This document shows, one piece after another, positions 1 through 13,519 of a stretch of DNA of 64,000 nucleotides. Within the stretch, counting starts at the first letter, position 1. Each line of letters begins with the position of its first letter. The stretch comes from Candidatus Lindowbacteria bacterium RIFCSPLOWO2_12_FULL_62_27 (GTDB lineage: Bacteria > Lindowbacteria > 2-12-FULL-62-27), in the NCBI GenBank assembly GCA_001784175.1, contig MFPR01000028.1:37955-101954 (forward strand), written 5' to 3'. The notes below the pieces were generated by a model. That model was not told the DNA's origin, ran no database searches, and saw only the letters and a program-made list of their open reading frames with translations. Made by a program: the position numbers and the translations under genes.

Positions 1-936
1 GTCCTGGCCGCAGGGACAGCACGACCAGCTCAGGCGCTGGATCGTGCGATAGGGCACGCGCCACGGATGCCATTCCTTCTGGCCGGACGGCCCGAACACC
101 GCGACGACCGGCGTGCCGACGGCGCTCGCGATATGGACCGGCGCGCTGTCAACGCCGACAAACAGCCGCGCGCGCGCGATCAGCGCGGCCAGCGTCAGAA
201 GGTCGGTTCGCCCGGCGAGCGTTGCCGGTTTCGACCGACAGGCCGCCAGGATTCGCGACACCTTGTCCATCTCGACCGCGGCCGGCCCGGAGGTGACGAC
301 GGGCCGCAGCCCGAGCGCGCGTTCGGCGCCGTCCAGGAATCGCGCGTTGCCTTCGTCCGTCCAGCACTTGTACATCCACCGGGACGTTGGGTGCAGAATC
401 AATATCGGCTGGTCGGACGAAACGCCGGATTCTCTCAGGAGCCGGTCGGCCCGCGCCCGCGCATCGTCCGGAATCCTCAACTGCAGTTTCATGTCTTCGT
501 CCGCCGCCGGCCGCGCTCCGGCCAGGGCGACAAGATCGAGATTGGCCAGCGCCGTGTGTCCCCGGCCCATCCTGCAGGCGCGCGTGTAAAAAGGCCAGAC
601 GGGAACGCGCTTCCGAAATAAATATCCCAGCCGAATCGGCGCGCCGGAAACCATGCCCCAGAGCGCGCTGCGAGTGTCCCAGGAAAAATCGACGGACAGA
701 TCGAACGACCCCCGCCGCAGACGGTCGGCCAGCCGGACACGCCCGCCGGTGTCGCGCGGAAATTCCAGCACTTCGTCCACGAACGGCAGGTCCCGGAACA
801 AATCGGCCCCGCCGCCCTCCTTCGGAACAAGATAGGTCAGACGCGCGGACGGATGGTGTTTCTTCAGGAGTGCCAGCGCCGGCGTCGCCAGTAGGTTATC
901 TCCCACATGCCGGAGTTTGATCGCAAGGATGTTCAT
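1..936 (-). CDS. Glycosyltransferase family 9 (LPS heptosyltransferase-like), runs off left edge
   Basis: Manual translation from ATG 936: MNILAIKLRHVGDNLLATPALALLKKHHPSARLTYLV...LPFVDEVLEF, a typical GT9 N-terminus. Absent from the ORF track, consistent with no stop in the window. Confidence 0.85.
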   Translation of the reverse strand, partial: MNILAIKLRHVGDNLLATPALALLKKHHPSARLTYLVPKEGGGADLFRDLPFVDEVLEFPRDTGGRVRLADRLRRGSFDLSVDFSWDTRSALWGMVSGAPIRLGYLFRKRVPVWPFYTRACRMGRGHTALANLDLVALAGARPAADEDMKLQLRIPDDARARADRLLRESGVSSDQPILILHPTSRWMYKCWTDEGNARFLDGAERALGLRPVVTSGPAAVEMDKVSRILAACRSKPATLAGRTDLLTLAALIARARLFVGVDSAPVHIASAVGTPVVAVFGPSGQKEWHPWRVPYRTIQRLSWSCCPCGQD

Positions 937-955
937 CCACCGATGATTATATCAC

Positions 956-1029
956 CGCGCCCGAAGGGAGTCGAACCCCTGACCTACAGCTCCGGAGGCT
1001 GTCGCTCTATCCAGCTGAGCTACGGGCGC
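956..1029 (-). tRNA. tRNA-Arg (anticodon CCG), CCA not encoded
   Basis: Reverse complement GCGCCCGTAGCTCAGCTGGATAGAGCGACAGCCTCCGGAGCTGTAGGTCAGGGGTTCGACTCCCTTCGGGCGCG folds as a cloverleaf; anticodon stem ACAGC/GCTGT, loop CTCCGGA. Confidence 0.97.
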
Positions 1030-1077
1030 ACGGACGCCGACATCCAACCTCAATCCGCCGCTATCGTCAACCGCCGG

Positions 1078-1386
1078 TCAGTTGAACTTCGGCGTGTATT
1101 TCGCGACCCAGTCGGTCTTGAGGCCCTCCGCGTCCGCGTCGGATTTCGTGACGAACCACCGGAACCGTTTGGCCTCGCGGTCGGCGGAACTGTTGCGCTT
1201 GGAGACGATTTCCGCCTTCAAGCCCTGGCCGCAGCTTTTCCCGGCGTAGAGCACCTCGGCGGTCTTGTCGGTAAAGACGTAAACGCCTTCGGCGTCCGGC
1301 GCCTCATTCACGTCCGCCGGGTAGTACCGCTCAAAGGAGCTGTCCGCGACTCTGGCGTCGTTCAGATCGTTCAGGTCGAATCTCAT
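1078..1386 (-). CDS. Small GIY-YIG superfamily protein
   Basis: APDAEGVYVF...VLYAGKS resembles the UvrC-type GIY-YIG motif; C-terminal PKFN. Confidence 0.65.
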   Translation of the reverse strand: MRFDLNDLNDARVADSSFERYYPADVNEAPDAEGVYVFTDKTAEVLYAGKSCGQGLKAEIVSKRNSSADREAKRFRWFVTKSDADAEGLKTDWVAKYTPKFN

Positions 1387-1410
1387 TCGTCTTTTCTTGG
1401 GATGGGGTTC

Positions 1411-2394
1411 TCAGGAAGTCTTGATCCAGCGATTTTTTTCCAGCGATTCGTACGATTTCATCATGATGTTCACGGCGTGAAACCCGTCCTGCAGATTCAG
1501 GAGCGGACTGGCGTCGCCGCGGATGCATTGAATGAAGTGCCGGTTCTGCTTTACGAATGAATCGACCTTGCTGTACCCCTTGCCGAACACCACCCACTCG
1601 TTCGAGTTCGCCTGGCGGTACCGCGACTGCGCCCAGCCGACCCGCAGGGTGCCTTCGTTCCCGTAGACGCTCACGAAATCCTCCCGGTCCTCCTTCATGC
1701 TCCAGGACAGATTGATGACGCCGAGGACGCCGTTTTTCATGTGGATCGAAAGTTTCGCGGTATCCTCCACCTCGATGTCCTGGATCTGGATTCCCACCGT
1801 GGCCTGAACGCTCTCGATCTCGCCCAGCAGAAATCGCGCGATGTCGAGCGAATGCGACCCGTTGTCGAACAATACGCCGCCGCCGGAAATCTCCTTTTTC
1901 GAATTCCACCGGCCCCGCATGTCGTTCATTCCGGTGAAGACGTTTTCGTACAGGAGGATCTTGCCCAGAAGGCCGCTCTGGATGATCGCCTTGGCCTTCA
2001 CGACGTCGGCGCAAAAACAGAACTTCGAGGCCGGCATTCCCACCACGCCCGCCTTTTCCTGCGCGATCATCAGCGCCCGCGATTCGGCCACGTTCATGCA
2101 CAGCGGTTTTTCGCAAAGCACGGGAATCCTGCGCTCAAAGGCGTACAGCGCCTGTTCCGCATGATGCACGGGCGGCGTGCAAACAATGACGCCGTCCATC
2201 GGCACCGTGTCGAGAAATTTCCGGTAGTCGGTGTGACAGGGCGCGCCGTACCGCTCCGCCACGGACTTCGCCCGGGCTTCTTCGGTGTCGCAGACGCCGG
2301 CCACCTTGCACTCCGATATGAGATCCAGCGCCTCAAAATGGGTCTGCGCAATCCGGCCGCAGCCGATCATGCCGATGCGTATCGAGTCCGTCAT
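1411..2394 (-). CDS. Gfo/Idh/MocA oxidoreductase (WbpB-like)
   Basis: Rossmann IGCGRIA, CEKP, GGGVLFDNGSH. Confidence 0.9.
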   Translation of the reverse strand: MTDSIRIGMIGCGRIAQTHFEALDLISECKVAGVCDTEEARAKSVAERYGAPCHTDYRKFLDTVPMDGVIVCTPPVHHAEQALYAFERRIPVLCEKPLCMNVAESRALMIAQEKAGVVGMPASKFCFCADVVKAKAIIQSGLLGKILLYENVFTGMNDMRGRWNSKKEISGGGVLFDNGSHSLDIARFLLGEIESVQATVGIQIQDIEVEDTAKLSIHMKNGVLGVINLSWSMKEDREDFVSVYGNEGTLRVGWAQSRYRQANSNEWVVFGKGYSKVDSFVKQNRHFIQCIRGDASPLLNLQDGFHAVNIMMKSYESLEKNRWIKTS

Positions 2395-2498
2395 AAAGCG
2401 CGATTGTACACGCCCGGCGGGGGGAAAGCAAGAAAAATACGTCCGTTGACTGGCCTGCCTTCTTCTGATAACGGTGGGGCTTCAAAATTCAGGGAGAG

Positions 2499-3719
2499 GT
2501 GCGAACCGTGACACAACAAACCATGAAATTGCCCACCGATCAGGACATCAGCGGGCGCGATGTCGGGAGGGCGGAACTCAAGGAACTCAAGGAAGTGCTC
2601 GCCAGCGGGATGCTCTTTTCGCCCAAGGGCACCAAGGTGAAAGCTTTTGAAAAGGCGTTCGCGGAAATGTACGGCGTCCCGCGCGCCGTCGCCTGCAGCT
2701 CCGGGTCGGCGGCGGTCCATACCGCGCTCAAGGCGCTGCATCTTGAGCCGGGCGACGAGGTGATCACGACGCCGATCACCGACATGGGCGGCATCGCGCC
2801 GATCCTGTACGAAAATCTCGTCCCCGTCTTTGCCGATATCGATCCCCGCACATTCAACCTCAGCGCTGAAACCATCAAGGCCCGGATGACGGACCGCACC
2901 CGCGCGATCATCGTGGTGCATCTCTTCGGAAATCCCTGCGACATGGATCCGATCATGGAACTCGCGCGGAGCCGCAACGTCAAAGTCATCGAGGACTGCG
3001 CGCAGGCGTTTCTGGCGACCTACAAGGGCCGCAAGGTCGGCACGATCGGCGACGTCGGCGCGTTCAGCCTCCAGCAGGGGAAACACATCACCTGCGGCGA
3101 GGGCGGCATTGTCATCTCCAACGACGACAACTTCGGCCGGCAGGCGTTTCTGTTCGTCAACAAGGGCTGGGGCTACGGCGATCCGAAACCGGACCATTAC
3201 TTCCTCGCGCTCAACTACCGCCTCTCCGAACTCTGCGGCGCGATGGCGTTCGCGCAGCTCGGGAAACTGGAAAAACTCGTCTCCCGGCGGCTCCGGTCCG
3301 TCCGGGCATTCCAGCGGATGATCAAAGCCGCGCGCGAGGGCGTCCAGTGGCCCTACGTTCAGCGCGGCTGTCAGAGCACGTACTGGAAATACTGCCTGCT
3401 GATCGACGAGCAGAAGCTCGGCAAGGACGTGGGACAGGTGGCGGCCGAACTCAAAGAGGCCGGGATCGCGTCGGCGCCCCGGTACATTCAGAAACCTGCT
3501 TTTGAATGCGAACTTTTCACGAAACGCCGCACCTTCGGCGCCAGCGGCTGGCCCTGGAACGGGCCGGCGCCGCGCGAGCCGAAGTTCAACCCCGAGTTGT
3601 TTCCGAACACCTATCAGGTGCTGAAGACGATTCTCGTCCTGCCCTGGAGCGAGTTTTACAAAAAAGAGCACGTCGACTACATCGCCGAGCACCTTCTTCG
3701 GGCCACGGGCACCCGATAG
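2499..3719 (+). CDS. DegT/DnrJ/EryC1/StrS PLP aminotransferase
   Basis: SSGSAAVH, VIEDCAQA, FSLQQGKHITCGEGG. Start may be 2508 or 2523. Confidence 0.92.
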   Translation: MRTVTQQTMKLPTDQDISGRDVGRAELKELKEVLASGMLFSPKGTKVKAFEKAFAEMYGVPRAVACSSGSAAVHTALKALHLEPGDEVITTPITDMGGIAPILYENLVPVFADIDPRTFNLSAETIKARMTDRTRAIIVVHLFGNPCDMDPIMELARSRNVKVIEDCAQAFLATYKGRKVGTIGDVGAFSLQQGKHITCGEGGIVISNDDNFGRQAFLFVNKGWGYGDPKPDHYFLALNYRLSELCGAMAFAQLGKLEKLVSRRLRSVRAFQRMIKAAREGVQWPYVQRGCQSTYWKYCLLIDEQKLGKDVGQVAAELKEAGIASAPRYIQKPAFECELFTKRRTFGASGWPWNGPAPREPKFNPELFPNTYQVLKTILVLPWSEFYKKEHVDYIAEHLLRATGTR

Positions 3720-4358
3720 ATGGCCGGCGGCGGTCGGCGCGCCCGGCGCGCGTATTTCGTTCATCCCACCGCACTCATTGAGAAGAGGGTGCGGATCGGC
3801 CGCGGCACGTCGATCTGGGACAACGTCCACATCCGGCACGGCGCGGTGATCGGGGAGGAGTGCATCGTCGGCGAGAAGACCTACATCGCATATGACGTCC
3901 GGATCGGAAACCGCGTCAAGATCAACGCCATGGTCTACATCTGCGCCGCCGTCACCATCGAGGACGGCGTCATGATTTCCGCGTCGACCACATTCACCAA
4001 CGACAAATTCCCCCGCGCCTGCGTTGCCGATCTTTCGCGGCTCAGGCCCTCGGAGCCCGATGACGAAACCCTCAGCACCACGGTGCGCCGCGGCTCGACG
4101 ATCGGCGCCGGCTGCGTGATCGGATGCGGGTTTGATCTCGGAGAATACTGCATGGTCGGGATGGGATCGATCGTCACAAAACCGGTGCCGCCGTTCCACC
4201 TTGTCTTCGGCCAGCCTGCGCGGTCCCGCGGCGCGGTCTGCCGGTGCGGCCATCCGATCCTGACCGAGGACCCTGCGACGGTTGCGAACAAAGTTCTGAC
4301 GTGCGTGAAGTGTAAAGAACGGTATCGATGCCGCCGGGGCGAGGTCAGCCGGATCTGA
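3720..4358 (+). CDS. Hexapeptide N-acetyltransferase (WbpD-like) with C-terminal Zn ribbon
   Basis: FVHPTALIE, hexapeptide repeats, TFTNDKFPR, CRCG...CVKC. Confidence 0.88.
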   Translation: MAGGGRRARRAYFVHPTALIEKRVRIGRGTSIWDNVHIRHGAVIGEECIVGEKTYIAYDVRIGNRVKINAMVYICAAVTIEDGVMISASTTFTNDKFPRACVADLSRLRPSEPDDETLSTTVRRGSTIGAGCVIGCGFDLGEYCMVGMGSIVTKPVPPFHLVFGQPARSRGAVCRCGHPILTEDPATVANKVLTCVKCKERYRCRRGEVSRI

Positions 4359-5776
4359 ACCCGCGGTTAAGCGCCCGGGAGGGGTGGGCGCTGCTTGGAT
4401 TGGTTCTGGCCGGGATATTCTTCCGGGTCTGGATCCTGGAGGGCGCCGGCATCAGTCCGGGCGGGCAGAATTATTATTACCGCGAGATCGTCCGCGGCAT
4501 GCGCGAGCGCGGAGAAATCGGGCTGTACCCCTACCGCGCGGATGCGTTTGTGGAGTTTCCGGAAATCATCAACGATCCGACCCCGCCGATTCGGAAGGTC
4601 GACCGCACCTTGCAGGACTTCGGCGTCAGCGTTGAAAGCGATTCGCGATTCATGGAATGGACCCCGCTTTTGCGGTATCCGCCGGGGTTCCCCGTCTTTT
4701 TGTACGCGGCGCACGGCGTCCTCGGCGACAAAACCAAACGGGTGGTCCTGCTGTGCATCGTCCTGAACGGAATCATGATCGCGCTGACGTTTCCCGTGGC
4801 CTGGATGCTGTTTCAGAGGAGAGACGTGGCGTGGGCCGCAACGGCGGTCAACGCGTTCTGGATTTTCACCGCCAAAAATTCCGCCACCTACGATCCCGCG
4901 TCGCTGGTCATCCCCGTCATGATGGCGGCCTGCCATTCGGCGCTCATGGCCTGGCATACGGGCAGGTGGCGATGGGTCCTGTCGATGGCCGCGCTGTCGT
5001 TTGTGGCGTCGAACCTTCGCGCCGACACGTTCTTTGTGTCGCTCCTGTTGCCGCTCGCCCTCTGGTTCCGCCCGGTTTCGATCCGGGAGAAACTGATCAA
5101 GCCGGCCGCCGCGATCGCGGTGGCGCTGGCGCTCTGGATTCCGTGGTCGTATCACAACCTGAACCATTTCGGCGTGTTTCGGCCGTTTCCCGCCGGCGCC
5201 GGATTCAACATCCTGGTGACCATTGGCCGCTACGCCCCCGAAAGCGGGTTTCCAGCGGACGACTATCAGACCATCGTCTGGGATCTGGGAGAGGATGCGG
5301 TCCGGCAGAAACTCTGGCCGTCCGACGTCACCTACCCGAACGGCGTGGCGCGGGACAAGCGGAAACTGGATCGGGCGGTCGAATGGATTCGCGAGCATCC
5401 GGTTCGGTACGCGGCGGTGATGCTGGTTCACATGAGATACTTTTTCTTCGCCGAGGAGGAGGCGGTGGAACAGCAGATCCGCGGCTGGTTTTCCGCGTTT
5501 CCTCCGGCCGTGGCCCGCGTCATGGGTTGGATCGGCAGGGCGATGGAACCGGCGGCGATACTTCTCGCGTGCGCGTGTCTATGGCGAAAGCGGAAAGATT
5601 CGAGTATGATGGTTCCCGTCATGCTGCTCTGGTCGTACGTGCTGCCGCATCTGCCGCTTTGGGTGGAATCAAGATATTTCAAAGCGGCCTGGCCGATCGT
5701 CCTGATTTTTTCGGTGGCCTGCATCCTGACCATGATCCGCAGGCCGGATCGCGCGGCGGAGGCTCGGGCGTCATGA
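4328..5776 (+). CDS. Polytopic membrane protein, GT-C/ArnT-like glycosyltransferase
   Basis: Multiple hydrophobic helices, RYPPGFPVFL, PWSYHN, ESRY. Confidence 0.6.
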   Translation: MPPGRGQPDLNPRLSAREGWALLGLVLAGIFFRVWILEGAGISPGGQNYYYREIVRGMRERGEIGLYPYRADAFVEFPEIINDPTPPIRKVDRTLQDFGVSVESDSRFMEWTPLLRYPPGFPVFLYAAHGVLGDKTKRVVLLCIVLNGIMIALTFPVAWMLFQRRDVAWAATAVNAFWIFTAKNSATYDPASLVIPVMMAACHSALMAWHTGRWRWVLSMAALSFVASNLRADTFFVSLLLPLALWFRPVSIREKLIKPAAAIAVALALWIPWSYHNLNHFGVFRPFPAGAGFNILVTIGRYAPESGFPADDYQTIVWDLGEDAVRQKLWPSDVTYPNGVARDKRKLDRAVEWIREHPVRYAAVMLVHMRYFFFAEEEAVEQQIRGWFSAFPPAVARVMGWIGRAMEPAAILLACACLWRKRKDSSMMVPVMLLWSYVLPHLPLWVESRYFKAAWPIVLIFSVACILTMIRRPDRAAEARAS

Positions 5777-6880: not shown

Positions 6881-7738
6881 ATGAAAAAATCTCAGATCAA
6901 AATCGGCATGGGACAGATGTTGGTGGAGGGAGGCGAGCCGGACCGGAATTTGGACCGGGCCGGCGAGATGATCCGGCAGGCGGCGGAGAAGAAATGCGAT
7001 TTGATTCTCCTGCCGGAACTCCTGGATCTCGCATGGTCGCATCCGAGTGCCCTGACGAAATCGCAGCCGATCCCCGGACCCTTCAGCGACCGGCTCTGCG
7101 GCAAGGCCCGGGAACACCGTATCTGGCTTGTGGCGGGCCTGACCGAACGGGACGGCGACAAGGTCTACAACTCGGCGATCTTCGTGAAACCAGACGGCGA
7201 AATCCTTCTGAAATACCGGAAAATAAATGAACTCAAAATCGTCCATCATTTCTACGAACTCGGCCAGTCTCTCTCCGTGGTCGAAACGCCCTTCGGCATG
7301 GTCGGAATCAACATCTGCGCGGACAACTACATCGATTCGCTCGCGATCGGACACACCCTCGCACGGATGGGCGCGCAGATCATTATCTCACCGTCCTCCT
7401 GGACGGTCGATTATTCCATCACGGAAGAACAGGACCCCTATGGCGAGAAATGGGTGAAACCCCTGACGATCCTCGCCAAATTGTACGACCTGGTCATCGT
7501 CACGACCACCAGCGTCGGATATCTCGTCGGAGGGCCTTACGAAGGGAAAAAGTCGGTGGGATGTTCCCTGTGCGTCGACAAAAACGGCGTCATCGCCAAG
7601 GGCCCCTACAACGAATTCGCCGGGGAACTGGTCGTTGCGGACATCAACATTCCCGATCGCAAGGAAAAAGGAACAGAACTTTGCGCGATGGTCCGGCAGA
7701 AAGGATATCGCGAATCCTTCAGCGGGTGGACTTGGTAG
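6881..7738 (+). CDS. Carbon-nitrogen hydrolase (nitrilase family)
   Basis: Catalytic E-K-C triad context: LLPE, YRKIN, ICAD. Confidence 0.88.
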   Translation: MKKSQIKIGMGQMLVEGGEPDRNLDRAGEMIRQAAEKKCDLILLPELLDLAWSHPSALTKSQPIPGPFSDRLCGKAREHRIWLVAGLTERDGDKVYNSAIFVKPDGEILLKYRKINELKIVHHFYELGQSLSVVETPFGMVGINICADNYIDSLAIGHTLARMGAQIIISPSSWTVDYSITEEQDPYGEKWVKPLTILAKLYDLVIVTTTSVGYLVGGPYEGKKSVGCSLCVDKNGVIAKGPYNEFAGELVVADINIPDRKEKGTELCAMVRQKGYRESFSGWTW

Positions 7739-8519
7739 CGACCTCGATCCGCATCGAACAAAAGATTTCTCCGCCCGGTGGAACTTCCAGGCGCTCGTCC
7801 GGCCTCAGGAGCGACCCGACGCCCGCCGACCACGGTTCAAAACACATGTAATCCGGCCGATCCGACCACACCACCAGCCGGGACGCGGGACGGAGAAACT
7901 CGCCGCCGGGAATCATCGATACCCTGCCTGTACCCGGAATCTCCATGTCGACCCGCTGCGGCATCAGGATCAGCGATTCGTCCAGCCGGTAGGTCCCGAT
8001 GTCAAACGCGAGAACATTCGTCGTCAACTTCAGGCGGCTGTCCGCCGAGATCGCGAAATAGGGATGGAGACCCGGCGCCGTCCAGAGCGGAACCCCGCCG
8101 GGATTCGAAACTCGCAGGGAAACGGTCAGCGACTCCGGATCGATCTCGATCCCGGCACGGACTTCAAATTCGAACGGGAACTTCGACTTGGTTTCGGCGG
8201 TGGCCCGAAGCCTGAGCGCAACGCGGCGCCCGTCCGCCGGAGATTCGACCGCCTCCCACGCCATGTCGCGGGCGAACCCGTGCTGGGCCAGATTGAAATT
8301 CGGCGGTGGCGCTGATAGCGCGCCGGCTTGGGGAAACAGAACGGGAATTCCGCCGCGGCGTTTCTTTCTGCCGCTCACGTCGATCTGGCCGTCAGGGTAC
8401 AGGATGCGCGTCCCGCCCACGGAAAAATCTGTGACCAAGCCGCCCTGTGTCGCGTCCACCATCGCGGTGGCCCGGCCGCTCGACAGCTTCAGAATCGTTC
8501 CCGGTTTTATCAGGCTCAT
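7719..8519 (-). CDS. Aldose 1-epimerase / galactose mutarotase-like
   Basis: RGGIPVLFP, QHGFARD, GLHPYF, CFEPW. Likely start ATG 8519. Confidence 0.88.
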   Translation of the reverse strand: MSLIKPGTILKLSSGRATAMVDATQGGLVTDFSVGGTRILYPDGQIDVSGRKKRRGGIPVLFPQAGALSAPPPNFNLAQHGFARDMAWEAVESPADGRRVALRLRATAETKSKFPFEFEVRAGIEIDPESLTVSLRVSNPGGVPLWTAPGLHPYFAISADSRLKLTTNVLAFDIGTYRLDESLILMPQRVDMEIPGTGRVSMIPGGEFLRPASRLVVWSDRPDYMCFEPWSAGVGSLLRPDERLEVPPGGEIFCSMRIEVATKSTR

Positions 8520-8557
8520 CACTTGCACCCTAGCACGCGGTGCGCTTGCGGCACAAG

Positions 8558-8575
8558 CAGGGTTGAAATGCGGCG
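8558..8575 (+). repeat. 18-bp direct repeat, left copy (CAGGGTTGAAATGCGGCG)
   Basis: Identical to 12903-12920. Confidence 0.85.
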
Positions 8576-8579
8576 ACAT

Positions 8580-8770
8580 CCGGAATTTTTTGGGCGTGAT
8601 AACCGGAATCCATTCCCGCCGTCCGTCATTCCCGCGAACGCGGGAATCTAGACCCTTTTACGTGTCATCCGATCCGGATACGTGCCGGAGGCACGCCCTC
8701 GCGCCCATTGGATGCAATCGGTATGTCCATCAACCAGAAACTCAAATCTCAATCTCCGTCCCCCGTCCAA
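8580..8770 (+). repeat. Mosaic palindromic repeat A (L1-core-R1)
   Basis: 56-bp core 8622-8677 with ATTCCCGCG-AA-CGCGGGAAT; L1 shared with B, R1 shared with C. Confidence 0.95.
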
Positions 8771-8771
8771 A

Positions 8772-8816
8772 ATATATGGAAGATAATATTGACAAACCTC
8801 CATATATGTCTATACT
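8772..8816 (+). promoter_or_regulatory. Sigma70 promoter with operator for the brnT/brnA pair
   Basis: TTGACA 8789-8794, 16 bp, TATACT 8811-8816; inverted repeat ATATATGGA/TCCATATAT; ATG 6 nt after the -10. Confidence 0.75.
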
Positions 8817-8822
8817 CTCCTG

Positions 8823-9107
8823 ATGGACGTTCGATATGGGGATTTTGTCTGGGACGCGAACAAGGAAAAAGCGAATATCAAAAAGCACGGCGTCGATTTT
8901 CGGACCGCGGCTCTGGCGTTTATGGACCAAAACGGCAAAATCATCGAGGACATGGAGCACAGCCGCGACGAGGAGCGCTTTTACTGCATCGGCATGGCGC
9001 ATGCCGATGTCCTCACGGTCTGGTTCACATATCGTGAGGCCTTGTTTCGCATCATCGGCGCTGGATATTTCCGAAAAGGAAGGAGCATTTATGAAAAGAC
9101 AATTTAA
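8823..9107 (+). CDS. BrnT family toxin
   Basis: FVWDANKEKANIKKHGVDF...EERFYCIG...RIIGA. Confidence 0.9.
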   Translation: MDVRYGDFVWDANKEKANIKKHGVDFRTAALAFMDQNGKIIEDMEHSRDEERFYCIGMAHADVLTVWFTYREALFRIIGAGYFRKGRSIYEKTI

Positions 9108-9321
9108 ATTTCCGAAAAAATTCCGGATTGTTCCCAGGGACGCATTCCCGCTGCCCGAGGATATTTGGATTCCTGACGACGGCGTGAAGATTACGTTGAA
9201 TCTTTCCCGTTACAGCGTCGATTTTTTTAAACGCGCCGCGCGCCGTCATAAAATCAAGTACCAGCGCGCGATACGGGATGTTCTCGATCGTTACGCCGAT
9301 CTGAATAAAAAAATCGCTTGA
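9091..9321 (+). CDS. BrnA/CopG-like antitoxin
   Basis: ATG 9091 overlapping the toxin end; VKITLNLSRYSVDFFK...KYQRAIRDVL. Confidence 0.82.
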   Translation: MKRQFKFPKKFRIVPRDAFPLPEDIWIPDDGVKITLNLSRYSVDFFKRAARRHKIKYQRAIRDVLDRYADLNKKIA

Positions 9322-9377
9322 CATCTTCGCCCATCCGCTGAAATGAGAAGGCGGGTTCGACATCGACGATGTAACAG

Positions 9378-9523
9378 CCGGAATTTTTTGGACGTGATAA
9401 CCGGAATCCATTCCCGCCATCCGTCATTCCCGCGAACGCGGGAATCCAGACCCTTTTACCCGTCATCCGATCCGGCGACTCGCTCCGTGTTCCATTACTG
9501 CAAAACTGCAAGTGTGACCCCGA
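9378..9523 (+). repeat. Mosaic palindromic repeat B (L1-core-R2)
   Basis: Core 9420-9475; followed by short CC(C)GA tandem repeats to about 9552. Confidence 0.95.
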
Positions 9524-9558
9524 CTCGGACCCCGACTCTACCGACTCCGAACAGAACG

Positions 9559-9852
9559 TCAGGCCGCAATTTTTTCGATTTTGAATCTGTATCCCAGCGC
9601 CTCCAAAACGTGTCTCAAATTCTTGTAGGTGGGGTTTCCGTTCGCGGAGAACATCCGGTATAAGCCGGCCCTGTCCAGCCGGACTTTCCTTGCAACAAGA
9701 CTCATGCCGCCATGGGCCTCCGCCACATTCTTCAGCGCCTCCAGAAACAGAGTCGGATCCCCATCCGCCACGGCCGCGTCCAGGTATGCCTGGGCCGCCT
9801 TCGGTTTTTTGAGCCGTTCGATCAGATCTTCCTTGAATGTCAGTTTGGGCAT
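9559..9852 (-). CDS. Addiction-module antidote, HTH antitoxin (HigA-like)
   Basis: AYLDAAVADGDPTLFLEALKNVAEAHGGMS...LYRMFSANGNPT. Start ATG 9852. Confidence 0.88.
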   Translation of the reverse strand: MPKLTFKEDLIERLKKPKAAQAYLDAAVADGDPTLFLEALKNVAEAHGGMSLVARKVRLDRAGLYRMFSANGNPTYKNLRHVLEALGYRFKIEKIAA

Positions 9853-9853
9853 G

Positions 9854-10195
9854 TCATTTACCTCTCTTTCTGGATTTGTATATCTTCCAGTACTCTTTGG
9901 CTCTTTTAATGTCCGCCGTCTGTGTGCTCTTATCCCCTCCACACAAAATCACCACGATCACAGGGCCGTCTTCGGCGACGTATATCCTGTACCTCGGCCC
10001 AAAATCTTCCTTGAGTTCAATAACCCCCTCACCCACGGACCGCCATTTGCCGAGATTACCCAACATCAGCTTGGTCAGCCGGACATCCAACTTGGCGACA
10101 TCGACCGGATTCTTCAGACTCATGAGCCATTCTCTGTAAGGGTACCGGTCTTTGGTCTCCTCAAAATAATAAAGCGTCCGCAGCACGGTCTCCAT
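9854..10195 (-). CDS. RelE/ParE-superfamily addiction-module killer toxin (HigB-like)
   Basis: GNLGKWRSVGEGVIELKEDFGPRYRIY...LCGGDKSTQTADI. Confidence 0.9.
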   Translation of the reverse strand: METVLRTLYYFEETKDRYPYREWLMSLKNPVDVAKLDVRLTKLMLGNLGKWRSVGEGVIELKEDFGPRYRIYVAEDGPVIVVILCGGDKSTQTADIKRAKEYWKIYKSRKRGK

Positions 10196-10201
10196 TTAAT
10201 G

Positions 10202-10230
10202 ATTGTAGATTATATTCAACATCAAGTCAA
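10202..10230 (-). promoter_or_regulatory. Sigma70 promoter of the HigBA-like pair
   Basis: Minus strand TTGACT-17bp-TACAAT, 6 nt before ATG 10195. Confidence 0.75.
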
Positions 10231-10243
10231 ATTTGCCCTGACA

Positions 10244-10448
10244 ATGCGGATTCAAGAACCGATGTCCCCGGACCGGATTTTGACGCCAGAACCCCAGAAC
10301 ACTCCGTCATTCCCGCGAACGCGGGAATCCAGACCCTTTTACCCGTCATCCGATCCGGAAACGTGCCGGAGGCACGCCCTCGCGCCCATTGGATGCAATC
10401 GGTATGTCCATCAACCAGAATCTCAAACCAGCTTCCGTCCCCGTCCAA
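10244..10448 (+). repeat. Mosaic palindromic repeat C (L2-core-R1)
   Basis: Core 10303-10358; L2 shared with D, R1 shared with A. Confidence 0.95.
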
Positions 10449-10449
10449 T

Positions 10450-10911
10450 TCATTCCCCGGATTTTTTGATGGTACTTTCCTTTAATTGTACCGATATTCG
10501 GAACGTTGTTTCCTTTTCGAGGCGTTCAAGGATTTCTCTCACAGAAATAATTTTGGTTTGTTTTTTCGCTTCCAACAGAACTGCCAGAAGACCGATGACG
10601 TGGATACCTCTTTCCATGGCGATTCGACGACCCCGTCTGTCGTCGATCAACAATAGGTCTGCATGCTTTTCCTCCGATAGAACAATCGCCTCCGATTCAC
10701 CTGCGCCAAGTTTTTTCTTCAAGTTGTCCACTGAATTGCGATCGGCCACGGCTTCGATTTTCATCCAAGCTGGCAATGATGGATGTAAATGTCCAAGTTC
10801 CGCGGCGACGGCGTCGGGAACACGGACGTCCTCATACAGGTCTCGAAGCAGATGGATGTGATTGATCCGGATCAGGGCGGAGACAGAGGAAGTATCGCTG
10901 ACGACAATCAA
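10450..10911 (-). CDS. DUF3368 PIN-domain (VapC-like) toxin
   Basis: MIVVSDTSS, VPDAVAAEL, LGAGESEAI, LLLIDDRRGR. Confidence 0.88.
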   Translation of the reverse strand: MIVVSDTSSVSALIRINHIHLLRDLYEDVRVPDAVAAELGHLHPSLPAWMKIEAVADRNSVDNLKKKLGAGESEAIVLSEEKHADLLLIDDRRGRRIAMERGIHVIGLLAVLLEAKKQTKIISVREILERLEKETTFRISVQLKESTIKKSGE

Positions 10912-11153
10912 AGTCTGTTGAGCGATTGAAGGGTCTTTAGGTCAGCTTCCAATTCATCGATGCCGTAATGTACGGCGATTTCTCGATTCGCCAATTCTTT
11001 CTGGAATTCGAGCACACCGAGTCCGGCGATTTCCGCCGCCTTGCCCATCGAAACCTGGTCGTCAACATACAGCCCAATGGCCAGATCAAGCTTCAGGCGT
11101 TCTGGCGGCAGGGTCAAATGATCGGGCAAATTCAAATCCAATCGAATGTTCAT
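10908..11153 (-). CDS. UPF0175 family antitoxin
   Basis: LAIGLYVDDQVSMGKAAEIAGL...EFQKELANREI; own promoter TTGAAA-17-TATGGT just upstream. Confidence 0.88.
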   Translation of the reverse strand: MNIRLDLNLPDHLTLPPERLKLDLAIGLYVDDQVSMGKAAEIAGLGVLEFQKELANREIAVHYGIDELEADLKTLQSLNRL

Positions 11154-11215
11154 GACTAAACCATACCGAACAGGCCGTGGGTTTTCAAGTTATCACCCCG
11201 GAATAGAAATAGGCG

Positions 11216-11377
11216 ATGCAGATTCAAGAACCGATGTCCACGGACCGGATTTTGACACCAGAACCAAGAACCCCAGAACTATCCGTCATTCCCGCGAACG
11301 CGGGAATCCAGACCCTTTTACGTGTCATCCGATCCGGCGACTCGCTCCGTGTTCCATTACTGCAAGTGTGACCCCGA
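11216..11377 (+). repeat. Mosaic palindromic repeat D (L2-core-R2)
   Basis: Core 11282-11337; followed by CCCCGAA tandem repeats. Confidence 0.95.
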
Positions 11378-11475
11378 ACCCCGAACCCCCCGGGGGTCCG
11401 AGGAGGCGAGAATCGCACGGGAGCGCATCAAACAGGCAGAAGTTTCGTTGATTTGAGGTCAAACGCATTCATGGT

Positions 11476-11829
11476 ATGAGGATTGCTGTGAAGAAACGGA
11501 GAATTGCGCCGGGCGATATCATTCCGCTCAACCAGATTGACCATCTGATATACGTTGTGCGGGGGCAGAGGGTGATGCTCGATTCTGATTTGGCACGGCT
11601 CTACGGCGTTACGACGTTCAATTTGAACAAGGCGGTTGGACGAAACACGATTCGGTTTCCTGATGACTTCCTGTTCCGGCTTTCGAAACAGGAATGGGAT
11701 TCTTTAAGATTCCAAATTGGAATCTTAAGGAAATTCAAAAAACACGATCAGCAAATCAACGCCCTCATCAACGCCATCCGCCAACTGCTCGCCCCGCCGG
11801 CACGACCCCATAAAAAAATCGGATTTTAA
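11476..11829 (+). pseudogene. ORF6N DNA-binding protein with internal in-frame deletion
   Basis: IYVVRGQRVMLDSDLARLYGV...RFPDDFLFRLS jumps directly to the C-terminal tail (KKIGF); the central segment usual in the family appears missing. Confidence 0.72.
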
Positions 11830-12277
11830 CCGCCAAGATCGCCAGACCGACCTGAACCCGCCTCCCGCCACGCCGGCCTGACTACCGGTCCAATGAAATC
11901 TGCCGCGAAAAATCCCGCCACACCTTAAAAAACTTTAGGCCTGAACCCGTCACCCCCGCAGGGACATCCCGTCCCATGCAGTCCGGCCGCCAAAATCCCG
12001 CCCCTCGAAACCGCCCTATGAGGCGCGAACTTTTTATGTTGCCCGCCCGTTTGTTGAATGTGGGGCATCGAAATGTCCTGAGGCTCCCCAAGGAGTACCC
12101 TCATCGAAAGAGGTTCCTGAAGGTTGTTGCACAGATCCAAAAACTTCGGGGTCCTTGATTTTTCACGAAGTTGTCGAAAGTGCGCATAGCGCTTCCCTCG
12201 GAAAAGCTCCAAAAATCGTCCGTCTCGCCGTTTTTCAGGTTCAGTATTTGTGTAAATGTGTCAACCCGACACCCTGA

Positions 12278-12847
12278 CTGACGCTGGCTGTCCGGCCGGC
12301 GGGCGGGCGCGACTGGATGGCGGCGTCATACGGGGCGCCGATGACCACCGGGCGCACATGGGACCTCCTGGTGTCGACGGACATGGGATCGGTGACCGTC
12401 GCATGGGACAACGCGCAGAATCTCCCCACCCGGTATGAGGCGTATCTGGTCGGCTTGCCGGGCGGGGCCGTCAATTTGAGGAAGGAGGCGTCCGCTCTTG
12501 TTTCCGCCGGGCCGCCCTTGACGCTGGTCGTCGGCGTGTCCGAATTTGTTGCGCCATTTCTGGCGGCGCCATTGTCGAAGGAGATGTCTTTCGCATTTCC
12601 GAATCCGGCCGAGGACAACGTAACATTCAAATACAACTTGCAGGCGGCGGGCGATGTATCGATCAAGATTTTCGACGTGGGCGGGCGGCTGGTGCGGGAG
12701 CTGAAGGCGTCAGGAGCGGCCGGGTCCAACACGCTGACGTGGGACACGACGAACAGGCACGGGCAGAAGGTCGGGTCGGGCGTGTATATCTACAGATTGG
12801 AGGCCGGCGGGAACCGGCTCATCGACAAGCTGGCGGTGGTGCGATAA
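12278..12847 (+). pseudogene. C-terminal fragment of a secreted protein with FlgD-Ig/T9SS-type sorting domain
   Basis: AFPNP...IKIFDVGGRLVREL...TWDTTNRHGQKVGSGVYIYRL; no signal peptide; frame opens just after a small hairpin at about 12259-12273. Confidence 0.65.
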
Positions 12848-13048: not shown

Positions 13049-13519
13049 ATGAAAGGCCACGCGGATTCGATCAAATTACTGAACGAAATCCTTCGGTTTG
13101 AACTGACGGCCATCAATATTTATTTTGTCCAGGCCAAAATGGCGAAGAATTGGGGATACGCGAAACTGAACGCCATGTTTCAGAAGGAATCCATTGAAGA
13201 AATGAAACACGCGGAACTCGTGATTGATCGCATCCTCTACCTGGAAGGCATTCCCAACATGGCGGCCTACAACAAAATGAGGCTCGGGTCCGACGTCCAG
13301 AAGCAGCTTCAGATCAACTGGGAGATGGAAAAGGGCATCATCGACTGCCTGAACAACGGAATCAAAAAAATGGTCGCCATCGGCGACAACGGCACCCGCG
13401 AGATGGCGGCGAAAATCCTGGTCGAAGAAGAAGAACACGCCGACTGGATCGAATCCCAGCTCCACGCCATCTCCGAAGTCGGCCTCGCGAGATACCTGAC
13501 CGAACACCTGCACGCGTAG
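13049..13519 (+). CDS. bfr: Bacterioferritin
   Basis: ELTAINIY, ESIEEMKHA, ILYLEGIP, EEEHADWIE. Confidence 0.93.
   Translation: MKGHADSIKLLNEILRFELTAINIYFVQAKMAKNWGYAKLNAMFQKESIEEMKHAELVIDRILYLEGIPNMAAYNKMRLGSDVQKQLQINWEMEKGIIDCLNNGIKKMVAIGDNGTREMAAKILVEEEEHADWIESQLHAISEVGLARYLTEHLHA

Follow-up and report, generated by a model that had tools for sequence, protein, structure and literature searches.

The 64,000-nucleotide stretch analysed here (the window) comes from Candidatus Lindowbacteria bacterium RIFCSPLOWO2_12_FULL_62_27 (contig MFPR01000028.1, positions 37,955 to 101,954, forward strand) and carries a small accessory islet of low GC content. It holds three type II toxin-antitoxin (TA) operons that are transcribed independently, each of them lying between copies of a composite repeat specific to the lineage. 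We read this locus as a repeat array similar to the NIME (Neisseria intergenic mosaic element) arrays, set in an accessory islet, with TA operons being reshuffled and exchanged through recombination at its repeats, and we give this reading a probability of roughly 0.55. Far from Neisseria, the locus joins three features, namely operons bracketed by repeats that derive from a known hairpin site (NTS), flanks of these repeats that have recombined, and cargos shared between genera at identities above that of the chromosome.

The source genome (labelled G000) is a short-read metagenome-assembled genome (MAG) of 4.39 Mb in 44 contigs, estimated at 94% completeness, and G001, G002 and G003 denote relatives from its family. 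Positions are those of the window unless a contig is given. The set of relatives held these three other species-level genomes of the family and 57 genomes related to it at domain level only; such thin sampling of the lineage limits comparative tests.

Arrangement of cores and arms

We identified four direct copies of a 56-nt core on the + strand, at 8622-8677 (copy A), 9420-9475 (B), 10303-10358 (C) and 11282-11337 (D), around three intact TA operons. Start-to-start spacings are 798, 883 and 979 bp, with protein-coding operons in between. Within the window we counted exactly four occurrences of the 24-nt core centre, always on the + strand (8625, 9423, 10306 and 11285), against an expectation of 0 from 100 shuffles. 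Pairwise identity between the 56-nt cores is 53-56 of 56 positions, B and C being identical (56/56) and A carrying a unique T at 8649.

Each core is flanked by one of two left arms and one of two right arms, all given here on the + strand. Left arm L1 is common to A (8580-8621) and B (9378-9419), with 42 of 45 positions identical, and left arm L2 is common to C (10242-10302) and D (11213-11281), with 94% identity over 50 nt and a 7-nt indel. Right arm R1 is shared by A (8678-8770) and C (10359-10448), where 65 of 67 positions are identical and similarity reaches about 93 nt, and right arm R2 is shared by B (9476-9523) and D (11338-11377), where 28 of 28 positions agree before an 8-nt indel. 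Copy B contains an 8-nt tandem duplication in R2 that is absent from copy D, and a short motif with 'ACTGCAA' units in tandem, part of R2, is found again at a few further sites of G000 (C4:~28182 and C30:168945-168976).

A dinucleotide inside the core is GT in A and D and CC in B and C, with identical stretches of 40 nt on its left and 14 nt on its right. The two left arms, the two right arms and this dinucleotide occur in all four combinations in every pairing. None of the three pairings passes the four-gamete test, which calls for at least two exchanges. CC is also found in three of the four long-core copies of the relatives (the fourth, the second copy of G002:C146, is divergent at this place), which makes GT in A and D the derived state. 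A preliminary description of this DNA had reported four repeats of the same orientation with every arm combination and an independently assorting GT/CC dinucleotide, and had argued that simple tandem duplication would not give such a mosaic; our sequence comparison confirmed the former, and the four-gamete failure bears out the latter.

Identity of the core

On sequence grounds the core is a known site, with a canonical NTS hairpin of the CGTC-1 family of repetitive extragenic palindromic (REP) sequences at its centre. The NTS (Neisseria transformation sequence) is defined by a 28-nt consensus within which the dRS3 repeat of Neisseria is contained (PMC11893778). We found this consensus, CGTCATTCCCGCGMAVGCGGGAATCYRG (28 nt), with 0 mismatches in all four array copies, within the first 30 nt of the core (8624-8651, 9422-9449, 10305-10332 and 11284-11311), and the 20-bp dRS3 pattern ATTCCC-N8-GGGAAT was likewise present in four of four. 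The likeness to dRS3 pointed out in the preliminary description was thus right and understated. The CGTC-1 REP family has been equated with dRS3 (PMC3733652), and the array copies show its features, with a CGTC tag, an 8-bp stem starting with AT, a 4-nt loop and a CCA-type tail (CTA in A).

The NTS is bound and cut by SsnA, a GIY-YIG nuclease of 94 aa that acts on it as single-stranded DNA (ssDNA) only, and the motif, with 1 mismatch permitted, occurs in many phyla, often flanking an ssn gene (PMC11893778). The partner nuclease was described only in 2025.

The core together with R2 aligns along its whole length with REP-dimers of the family, in which about 35 nt of spacer separate an NTS on the + strand from an inverted variant hairpin. 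By this alignment the type B unit (an L1-like arm, the core and R2) is a decayed copy of a REP-dimer, with R2 of copy B as its decayed right half, which aligns both to REP-dimers and to the unit of G003:C106. The inner part of L1 in copy A duplicates some of the 5' half of the NTS, and half-NTS extensions resembling it are also found in unrelated families.

When the repeats were folded, the 8-bp NTS stem was the sole consistent structure, with unremarkable z-scores of -0.7 to -2.05, and an Rfam scan of 7500-12500 (E ≤ 1) returned one chance-level match (E 0.24) and assigned the repeats to no RNA family. The nested hairpin proposed earlier is not supported, as its outer CCGGA/TCCGG stem appeared in the minimum-energy fold of B alone and the copies with L2 lack its left half.

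Toxin-antitoxin operons and their homologs

The operon between cores A and B consists of a BrnT toxin gene (8823-9107, + strand, 94 aa; PF04365, E 3.8e-21), preceded by a promoter-like site at 8789-8816 (11/12 matches), and a presumed BrnA antitoxin gene that overlaps its end (9091-9321, + strand, 76 aa). The latter was assigned by position only and had no Pfam (E ≤ 0.01) or NCBIfam (E ≤ 0.001) match. Between B and C, on the minus strand, lie a HigB/RelE-type toxin gene (9854-10195, 113 aa; TIGR02683, 100.7 bits against a cut-off of 62.85), with a promoter-like site at 10230-10202, and a HigA-type antitoxin gene of the HI1420 antidote family (9559-9852; PF21716, E 1.1e-13). Between C and D, also on the minus strand, we found a UPF0175 antitoxin-like gene (10908-11153, 81 aa; PF03683, E 3.1e-17) and a gene for a PIN-like toxin with DUF3368 (10450-10911, 153 aa; PF11848, E 3.1e-9). 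A promoter-like site was predicted upstream of each operon, and 8500-11500 contained 7 such sites against 2.0 ± 1.5 expected. With small adjacent or overlapping genes, known families and predicted promoters of their own, the pairs have the makeup of type II TA operons, as the preliminary description had proposed; family matches and promoter-like sites agree with it on all three, except that BrnA is without a family match.

Two of these cargos recur in two other genera. The UPF0175/PIN cargo of G000 shares 93.1% nucleotide identity with its homolog in G002:C146 and the HigBA cargo 91.8% with that in G003:C106, whereas four syntenic chromosomal genes compared between the genera share 65-82%. All of these cargo genes are intact, and of their codon differences 68 are synonymous and 27 non-synonymous; HigA differs from the G003 copy at 3 of 98 amino acids and UPF0175 from the G002 copy at 2 of 82. 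Judged by these comparisons, the TA cargos look as if they had been exchanged between lineages.

The surroundings of the cargos are different. On G002:C146 the UPF0175/PIN pair is placed between two cores, with a different BrnT-like/CopG pair, a cyclase and a helicase fragment nearby, and on G003:C106 the HigBA pair comes with one core and adjoins an AAA_14/DUF4143 gene. The G002 copy is without the R1 insertions of about 48 and 10 nt that, added to the G002 right flank, make up R1 of copy C, and it has an L1-like arm where L2 of copy D stands in G000. HigBA of G003 similarly has an L1-like arm at the place of L2 of copy C, which is unique to G000. Within G000 each arm abuts two unrelated cargos.

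These observations do not support two proposals of the preliminary description. That units of right arm, TA pair and left arm move as cassettes is at odds with the other arms that the same cargos carry in G002 and G003, and repeated crossover inside the core cannot be the sole route, as it would not produce arms that abut two unrelated cargos.

Distribution of the short NTS and the long core

In the G000 genome we counted 10 exact copies of the NTS and 13 with at most 1 mismatch. NTS-type matches numbered 14 in G000, 1 in G001, 8 in G002 and at least 68 in G003. Array DNA was matched in 17 of the 61 genomes, among them G000 and the three other members of its family; for the 13 matched genomes outside the family the matches were limited to the hairpin and its immediate flank, and near-identical copies of the hairpin were found at eight loci of other families.

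The long core, by comparison, was found in this family only, with four copies in G000, two in G002:C146 and two in G003 (C106 and C91). A scan with the long-core pattern gave G002 and G003 only among genome contigs (3 stretches) and 0 matches among metagenome contigs. Across the three genera, TA genes adjoin 7 of the 8 long cores, the eighth being located between an HTH_3 open reading frame (ORF) and a GGDEF gene. Because two of the cargos have orthologs in another of these genomes, the associations cannot be counted as independent.

For the short NTS we recovered no TA family (0/20) among the ORFs that flank the other 11 copies in G000 (selected with a crude GC3 ORF filter; five were without a Pfam match). 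Their neighbours include RecQ, BipA, an adenine deaminase, two RhuM genes, a reverse transcriptase and HsdS. The two RhuM-family genes are directly beside NTS copies (C4:298284-299333 and C30:97326-98066; L058 and L063), one of them adjoining the type I restriction gene HsdS, and the reverse-transcriptase gene adjoins an NTS at C10:20834. In G003 we took 20 of about 37 separate NTS places in listed order and scanned 10 small ORFs; one of the 20 loci was TA-adjoining (a Phd/PIN pair). The short form is a dispersed REP without TA enrichment, and the long 56-nt derivative alone is TA-linked. A dispersed REP with no enrichment next to TA genes had been named beforehand as evidence against a cassette array; this description fits the short form (0/20 ORFs in G000, 1/20 loci in G003) and does not fit the long core (7/8).

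The REP ancestry of the core raises the alternative that the unit of left arm, core and right arm is a small non-autonomous mobile element, akin to a REP-dimer or a miniature inverted-repeat transposable element (MITE), which inserted between the genes of a TA island already in place. In that case the combinations of arms would reflect recombination among variants of the element and not movement of cargo. Such an element would account for the homology of core and R2 to the dispersed REP-dimer family and would resemble the NTS copies of G003, which occupy intergenic gaps genome-wide, mostly as inverted doublets (head-to-head dimers); REP-type elements are moreover thought to be mobilised in trans (PMC3733652). 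However, L1, L2, R1 and R2 are each confined to the array locus within the 4.39-Mb genome, and comparison of the arms on both strands detected neither relatedness among them nor terminal inverted repeats (16 comparisons, all p ≥ 0.25). CGTC REPs are without a known dedicated transposase (PMC3733652). We found eight Y1 (IS200-like, PF01797) transposase genes of about 290-365 aa in G000 (for example C41:78434-78775 and C1:98904-99233), with similar numbers in the three relatives, but 0 of the 8 are on a contig that carries an NTS, and no layout of the RAYT (REP-associated tyrosine transposase) type was present. Insertion into a standing island also leaves unexplained why the TA cargos are 10-25 points above the chromosomal genes in identity between genera. 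We consider this alternative unlikely.

Support from public reads

Seven public runs from four studies contain the stretch, and we compared four of them, all as k=31 unitigs. No differing letters or indels were listed in the four runs. A k=31 unitig spans junction A (8000-8709) in all 4, and single unitigs hold CC with R2 (copy B) and CC with R1 (copy C), confirming the links between dinucleotide and right arm in A, B and C. Unitigs of this length fail to bridge the 40 nt common to B, C and D, so the linkage of left to right arm in these copies rests on the MAG assembly.

The four-way mosaic could on this account be in part an assembly artefact, the shared 40-56 nt of B, C and D having been threaded wrongly. 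The genome is a short-read MAG, cores B and C agree at all 56 nt, the unitigs break at every core with no bridge from left to right arm at B, C and D, and the order BrnTA, UPF0175/PIN, HigBA would leave only two junction types, L1/R1 and L2/R2. That order would remove the arm mosaic but not the incompatibility between dinucleotide and right arm, and the combinations of these two in A, B and C, each held in single unitigs, already need recombination. In addition, the repeats are shorter than normal reads, so that assemblers should resolve them and not guess, and both the spanned junction A and the agreement of the four runs letter by letter argue against wrong threading. We regard an artefact as improbable.

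Summed unitig depth at the cores (8588-8734, 9323-9469, 10205-10351 and 11234-11380) was 250-4500 against 6-25 elsewhere, and hundreds of unitigs fitted two places (runs X1, X3, X4 and X5). This excess indicates that NTS-type hairpins are very abundant in other members of the groundwater and soil communities. NTS copies from other organisms seem to account for the single joint listed, which connects 8649 with 11284 (one run, side 25, 6 extra letters), and for the numerous loose ends at the hairpin. Unitigs of the TA operons were mostly somewhat deeper than the flanks, with unitig depth being unable to rank the parts.

Islet boundaries

GC content is 0.49-0.57 over 8580-12316 and 0.61 on both sides. 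The islet is flanked by an aldose-epimerase gene (7719-8519) and a bacterioferritin gene (13049-13519), which are 4.5 kb apart. In G002 the same two genes are separated by 306 bp with no array, gene or NTS between them (L054, G002:C100 2529-4066), and the orientation of the epimerase is flipped between the two genomes. The region looks like a rearrangement-prone spot. In G003 the epimerase and bacterioferritin genes are on separate contigs, and NTS pairs flank the latter (L056 3253-3345 and 5706-5770).

Downstream of copy D, the low-GC islet has a tail at 11476-12316 (GC 0.54 against 0.61 in the flanks). It starts with an ORF6N-domain gene (11476-11829, + strand, 117 aa; PF10543, E 2.4e-22), followed by about 490 bp without a convincing ORF and with a pair of direct repeats of 40 nt each (11880 and 11963, with 70% identity). 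The tail is possibly the remnant of a further mobile piece.

Searches for integrases, recombinases and Ssn-type nucleases

Promoter-bearing TA cassettes in either orientation, with same-sense repeats between them, are typical of chromosomal integrons, and the locus might accordingly be taken for an integron cassette array in degenerate form, with clustered attC sites but no integrase. We found no integron integrase in G000 above the TIGR02249 cut-off of 265 bits, the best match (111.6 + 84.7 bits) being on another contig, C33, and 0 attC box pairs of the form RYYYAAC...GTTRRRY on both strands of the four units. The repeats are furthermore conserved in sequence and not in structure alone, and the 8-bp hairpin is their only fold. 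The integron explanation is close to refuted, in line with the preliminary description, which had seen neither an integron nor a recombinase in the array.

A second possibility is a dedicated cassette system unrelated to integrons, in which an enzyme acting in trans at the 56-nt core inserts and excises circular TA units; candidates for it would be an Ssn-type ssDNA nuclease together with host repair, or another recombinase. Several properties of the array are as such a system would predict. The four cores are co-oriented while their cargos have both orientations, the breaks between arm and core are sharp and at the same position in every copy, a second CCGTCAT motif follows the first within the core at a distance of 37 nt, each of the four junction types could have its counterpart among attL, attB, attP and attR, and the cargos have been exchanged between genera. 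The break between L1 and L2 is 3 nt upstream of CGTC, near the place where SsnA was reported to cut, a few nucleotides upstream of the NTS (PMC11893778; about 3 nt is what we infer from oligonucleotide lengths). We treat this agreement as coincidence and not as evidence.

The enzyme itself was not found. Searches for serine recombinase, rve transposase, IS110 and Y1 transposase detected no recombinase near the array, and none was detected in or near the corresponding loci of G002 and G003. A candidate nuclease is present in G003, the NTS-richest genome of the family, where a 96-aa single-domain GIY-YIG gene (L041, G003:C97, 1441-1731, minus strand) is flanked by three NTS (1412-1439 on the + strand, 1744-1771 and 1777-1804 on the minus strand), reproducing the published NTS-ssn-NTS layout (PMC11893778). 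No Ssn-type gene was recognisable in G000, its best match being a UPF0213-type GIY-YIG gene with 33% identity and no flanking motif. GIY-YIG nucleases cut DNA, and to our knowledge none is known to rejoin it. That arms part from their cargo between genera, and that the relatives have only one or two cores per locus, also speaks against a dedicated system, and neither an alternative order nor a circle junction appeared in the k=31 unitigs, data that could hardly have shown one. The cassette reading, which the preliminary description had favoured with a trans-acting enzyme, is unsupported, and we think it has little chance of being right.

A more specific form of it would make the NTS-derived core the attachment site of a hairpin-directed ssDNA gene-cassette system distinct from integrons, with an Ssn-type nick a few nucleotides upstream of the hairpin, at the left-arm break, and host repair that joins TA or defence cassettes. 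If true, gene capture across phyla would be among the functions of the widespread NTS/Ssn pair, but we rate this form as still less likely than a cassette system in general.

Proposed explanation

We favour the explanation by a NIME-like array. NIME arrays were proposed to promote the exchange of adjacent genes through recombination with acquired DNA, and genes flanked by arrays to be insertable into chromosomal arrays (Bentley et al., PMC1797815). In the islet, the direct repeat copies would provide short patches of identity with a possibly nuclease-sensitive hairpin, at which resident and incoming DNA may recombine through RecA-type homology, with or without Ssn-type cleavage. TA operons would in this manner be inserted, replaced and re-ordered, and the sequences flanking the hairpin reshuffled. 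As the TA cargo is addictive, cells with a loop-out deletion between direct repeats might then be selected against.

Several points weigh against this explanation. The identical stretches are short (40 + 14 nt) and hence a poor substrate for RecA-type recombination. Since each arm abuts two unrelated cargos with sharp edges, a crossover in the core is insufficient and further events at the joints of arm and cargo have to be assumed. The assembly of G000, 94% complete, has no recognisable Ssn-type gene, and the public k=31 unitigs contain no strain-level variation in order. The comparison also draws on four family genomes only, with TA associations that are non-independent.

Comparison with known systems

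The array resembles the TA arrays of chromosomal integrons in its promoter-bearing TA operons in either orientation, its same-sense repeats and the presence of addiction genes that could stabilise a direct-repeat array. It differs from them in having no intI, no attC boxes and no attC fold, in its sequence-conserved core and in arms that part from their cargo. The locus cautions against taking every TA array with same-sense repeats for an integron-like one. The inverted REP doublets dispersed between genes in G003 are reminiscent of REPIN-RAYT systems; here, though, the hairpins are of the CGTC type and not the GTAG type, no Y1 gene is beside an NTS in G000, and the gene associated with the repeats in G003 encodes a GIY-YIG nuclease.

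With CGTC-1 REPs and bacterial interspersed mosaic elements (BIMEs; PMC3733652) the array shares the tag, stem, loop and tail, and the head-to-head dimers of that family are common in G003. Whereas typical copies are inverted pairs downstream of ordinary genes, those of the array are single, direct, extended and placed between accessory genes. With the NTS/Ssn system (PMC11893778) it has in common the exact 28-nt consensus, the clustering of NTS around particular genes and the occurrence in many unrelated families. The genes bracketed here are TA operons, the word 'toxin' being absent from the main text of PMC11893778; G000 is without a recognisable Ssn gene, and what that paper demonstrates is an effect on transformation in Neisseria and not the movement of cassettes. 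In the literature, seen in part, we found no paper linking TA genes to dRS3 or NTS repeats (PMC3091772 included) and none on TA cassettes flanked by such repeats; on the latter subject the papers listed dealt with integrons, plasmids, transposons and unrelated topics.

NIME arrays of Neisseria, which according to PMC1797815 (2007) had not been seen outside that genus, are the system to which we compare the array first. Several differences separate the two. Here whole TA operons of about 550-780 bp lie between the hairpins, so that the NIME spacing of dRS3 with repeat-sequence (RS) modules of 50-150 bp is not reproduced, and the arms, although similar to RS modules, occur only twice each. The array also has a conserved 56-nt core derived from a REP-dimer, in only four copies that are all direct, and its host is an uncultured groundwater bacterium and not Neisseria. 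Both have the same dRS3 hairpin, modular flanks in mosaic combinations that vary between related genomes, and a position beside variable or exchanged genes, and NIME arrays have been proposed as a recombination substrate able to capture array-flanked genes (PMC1797815). With its small and defined substrate, the Lindowbacteria array makes the old NIME hypothesis, that repeats promote the capture and exchange of adjacent genes, testable.

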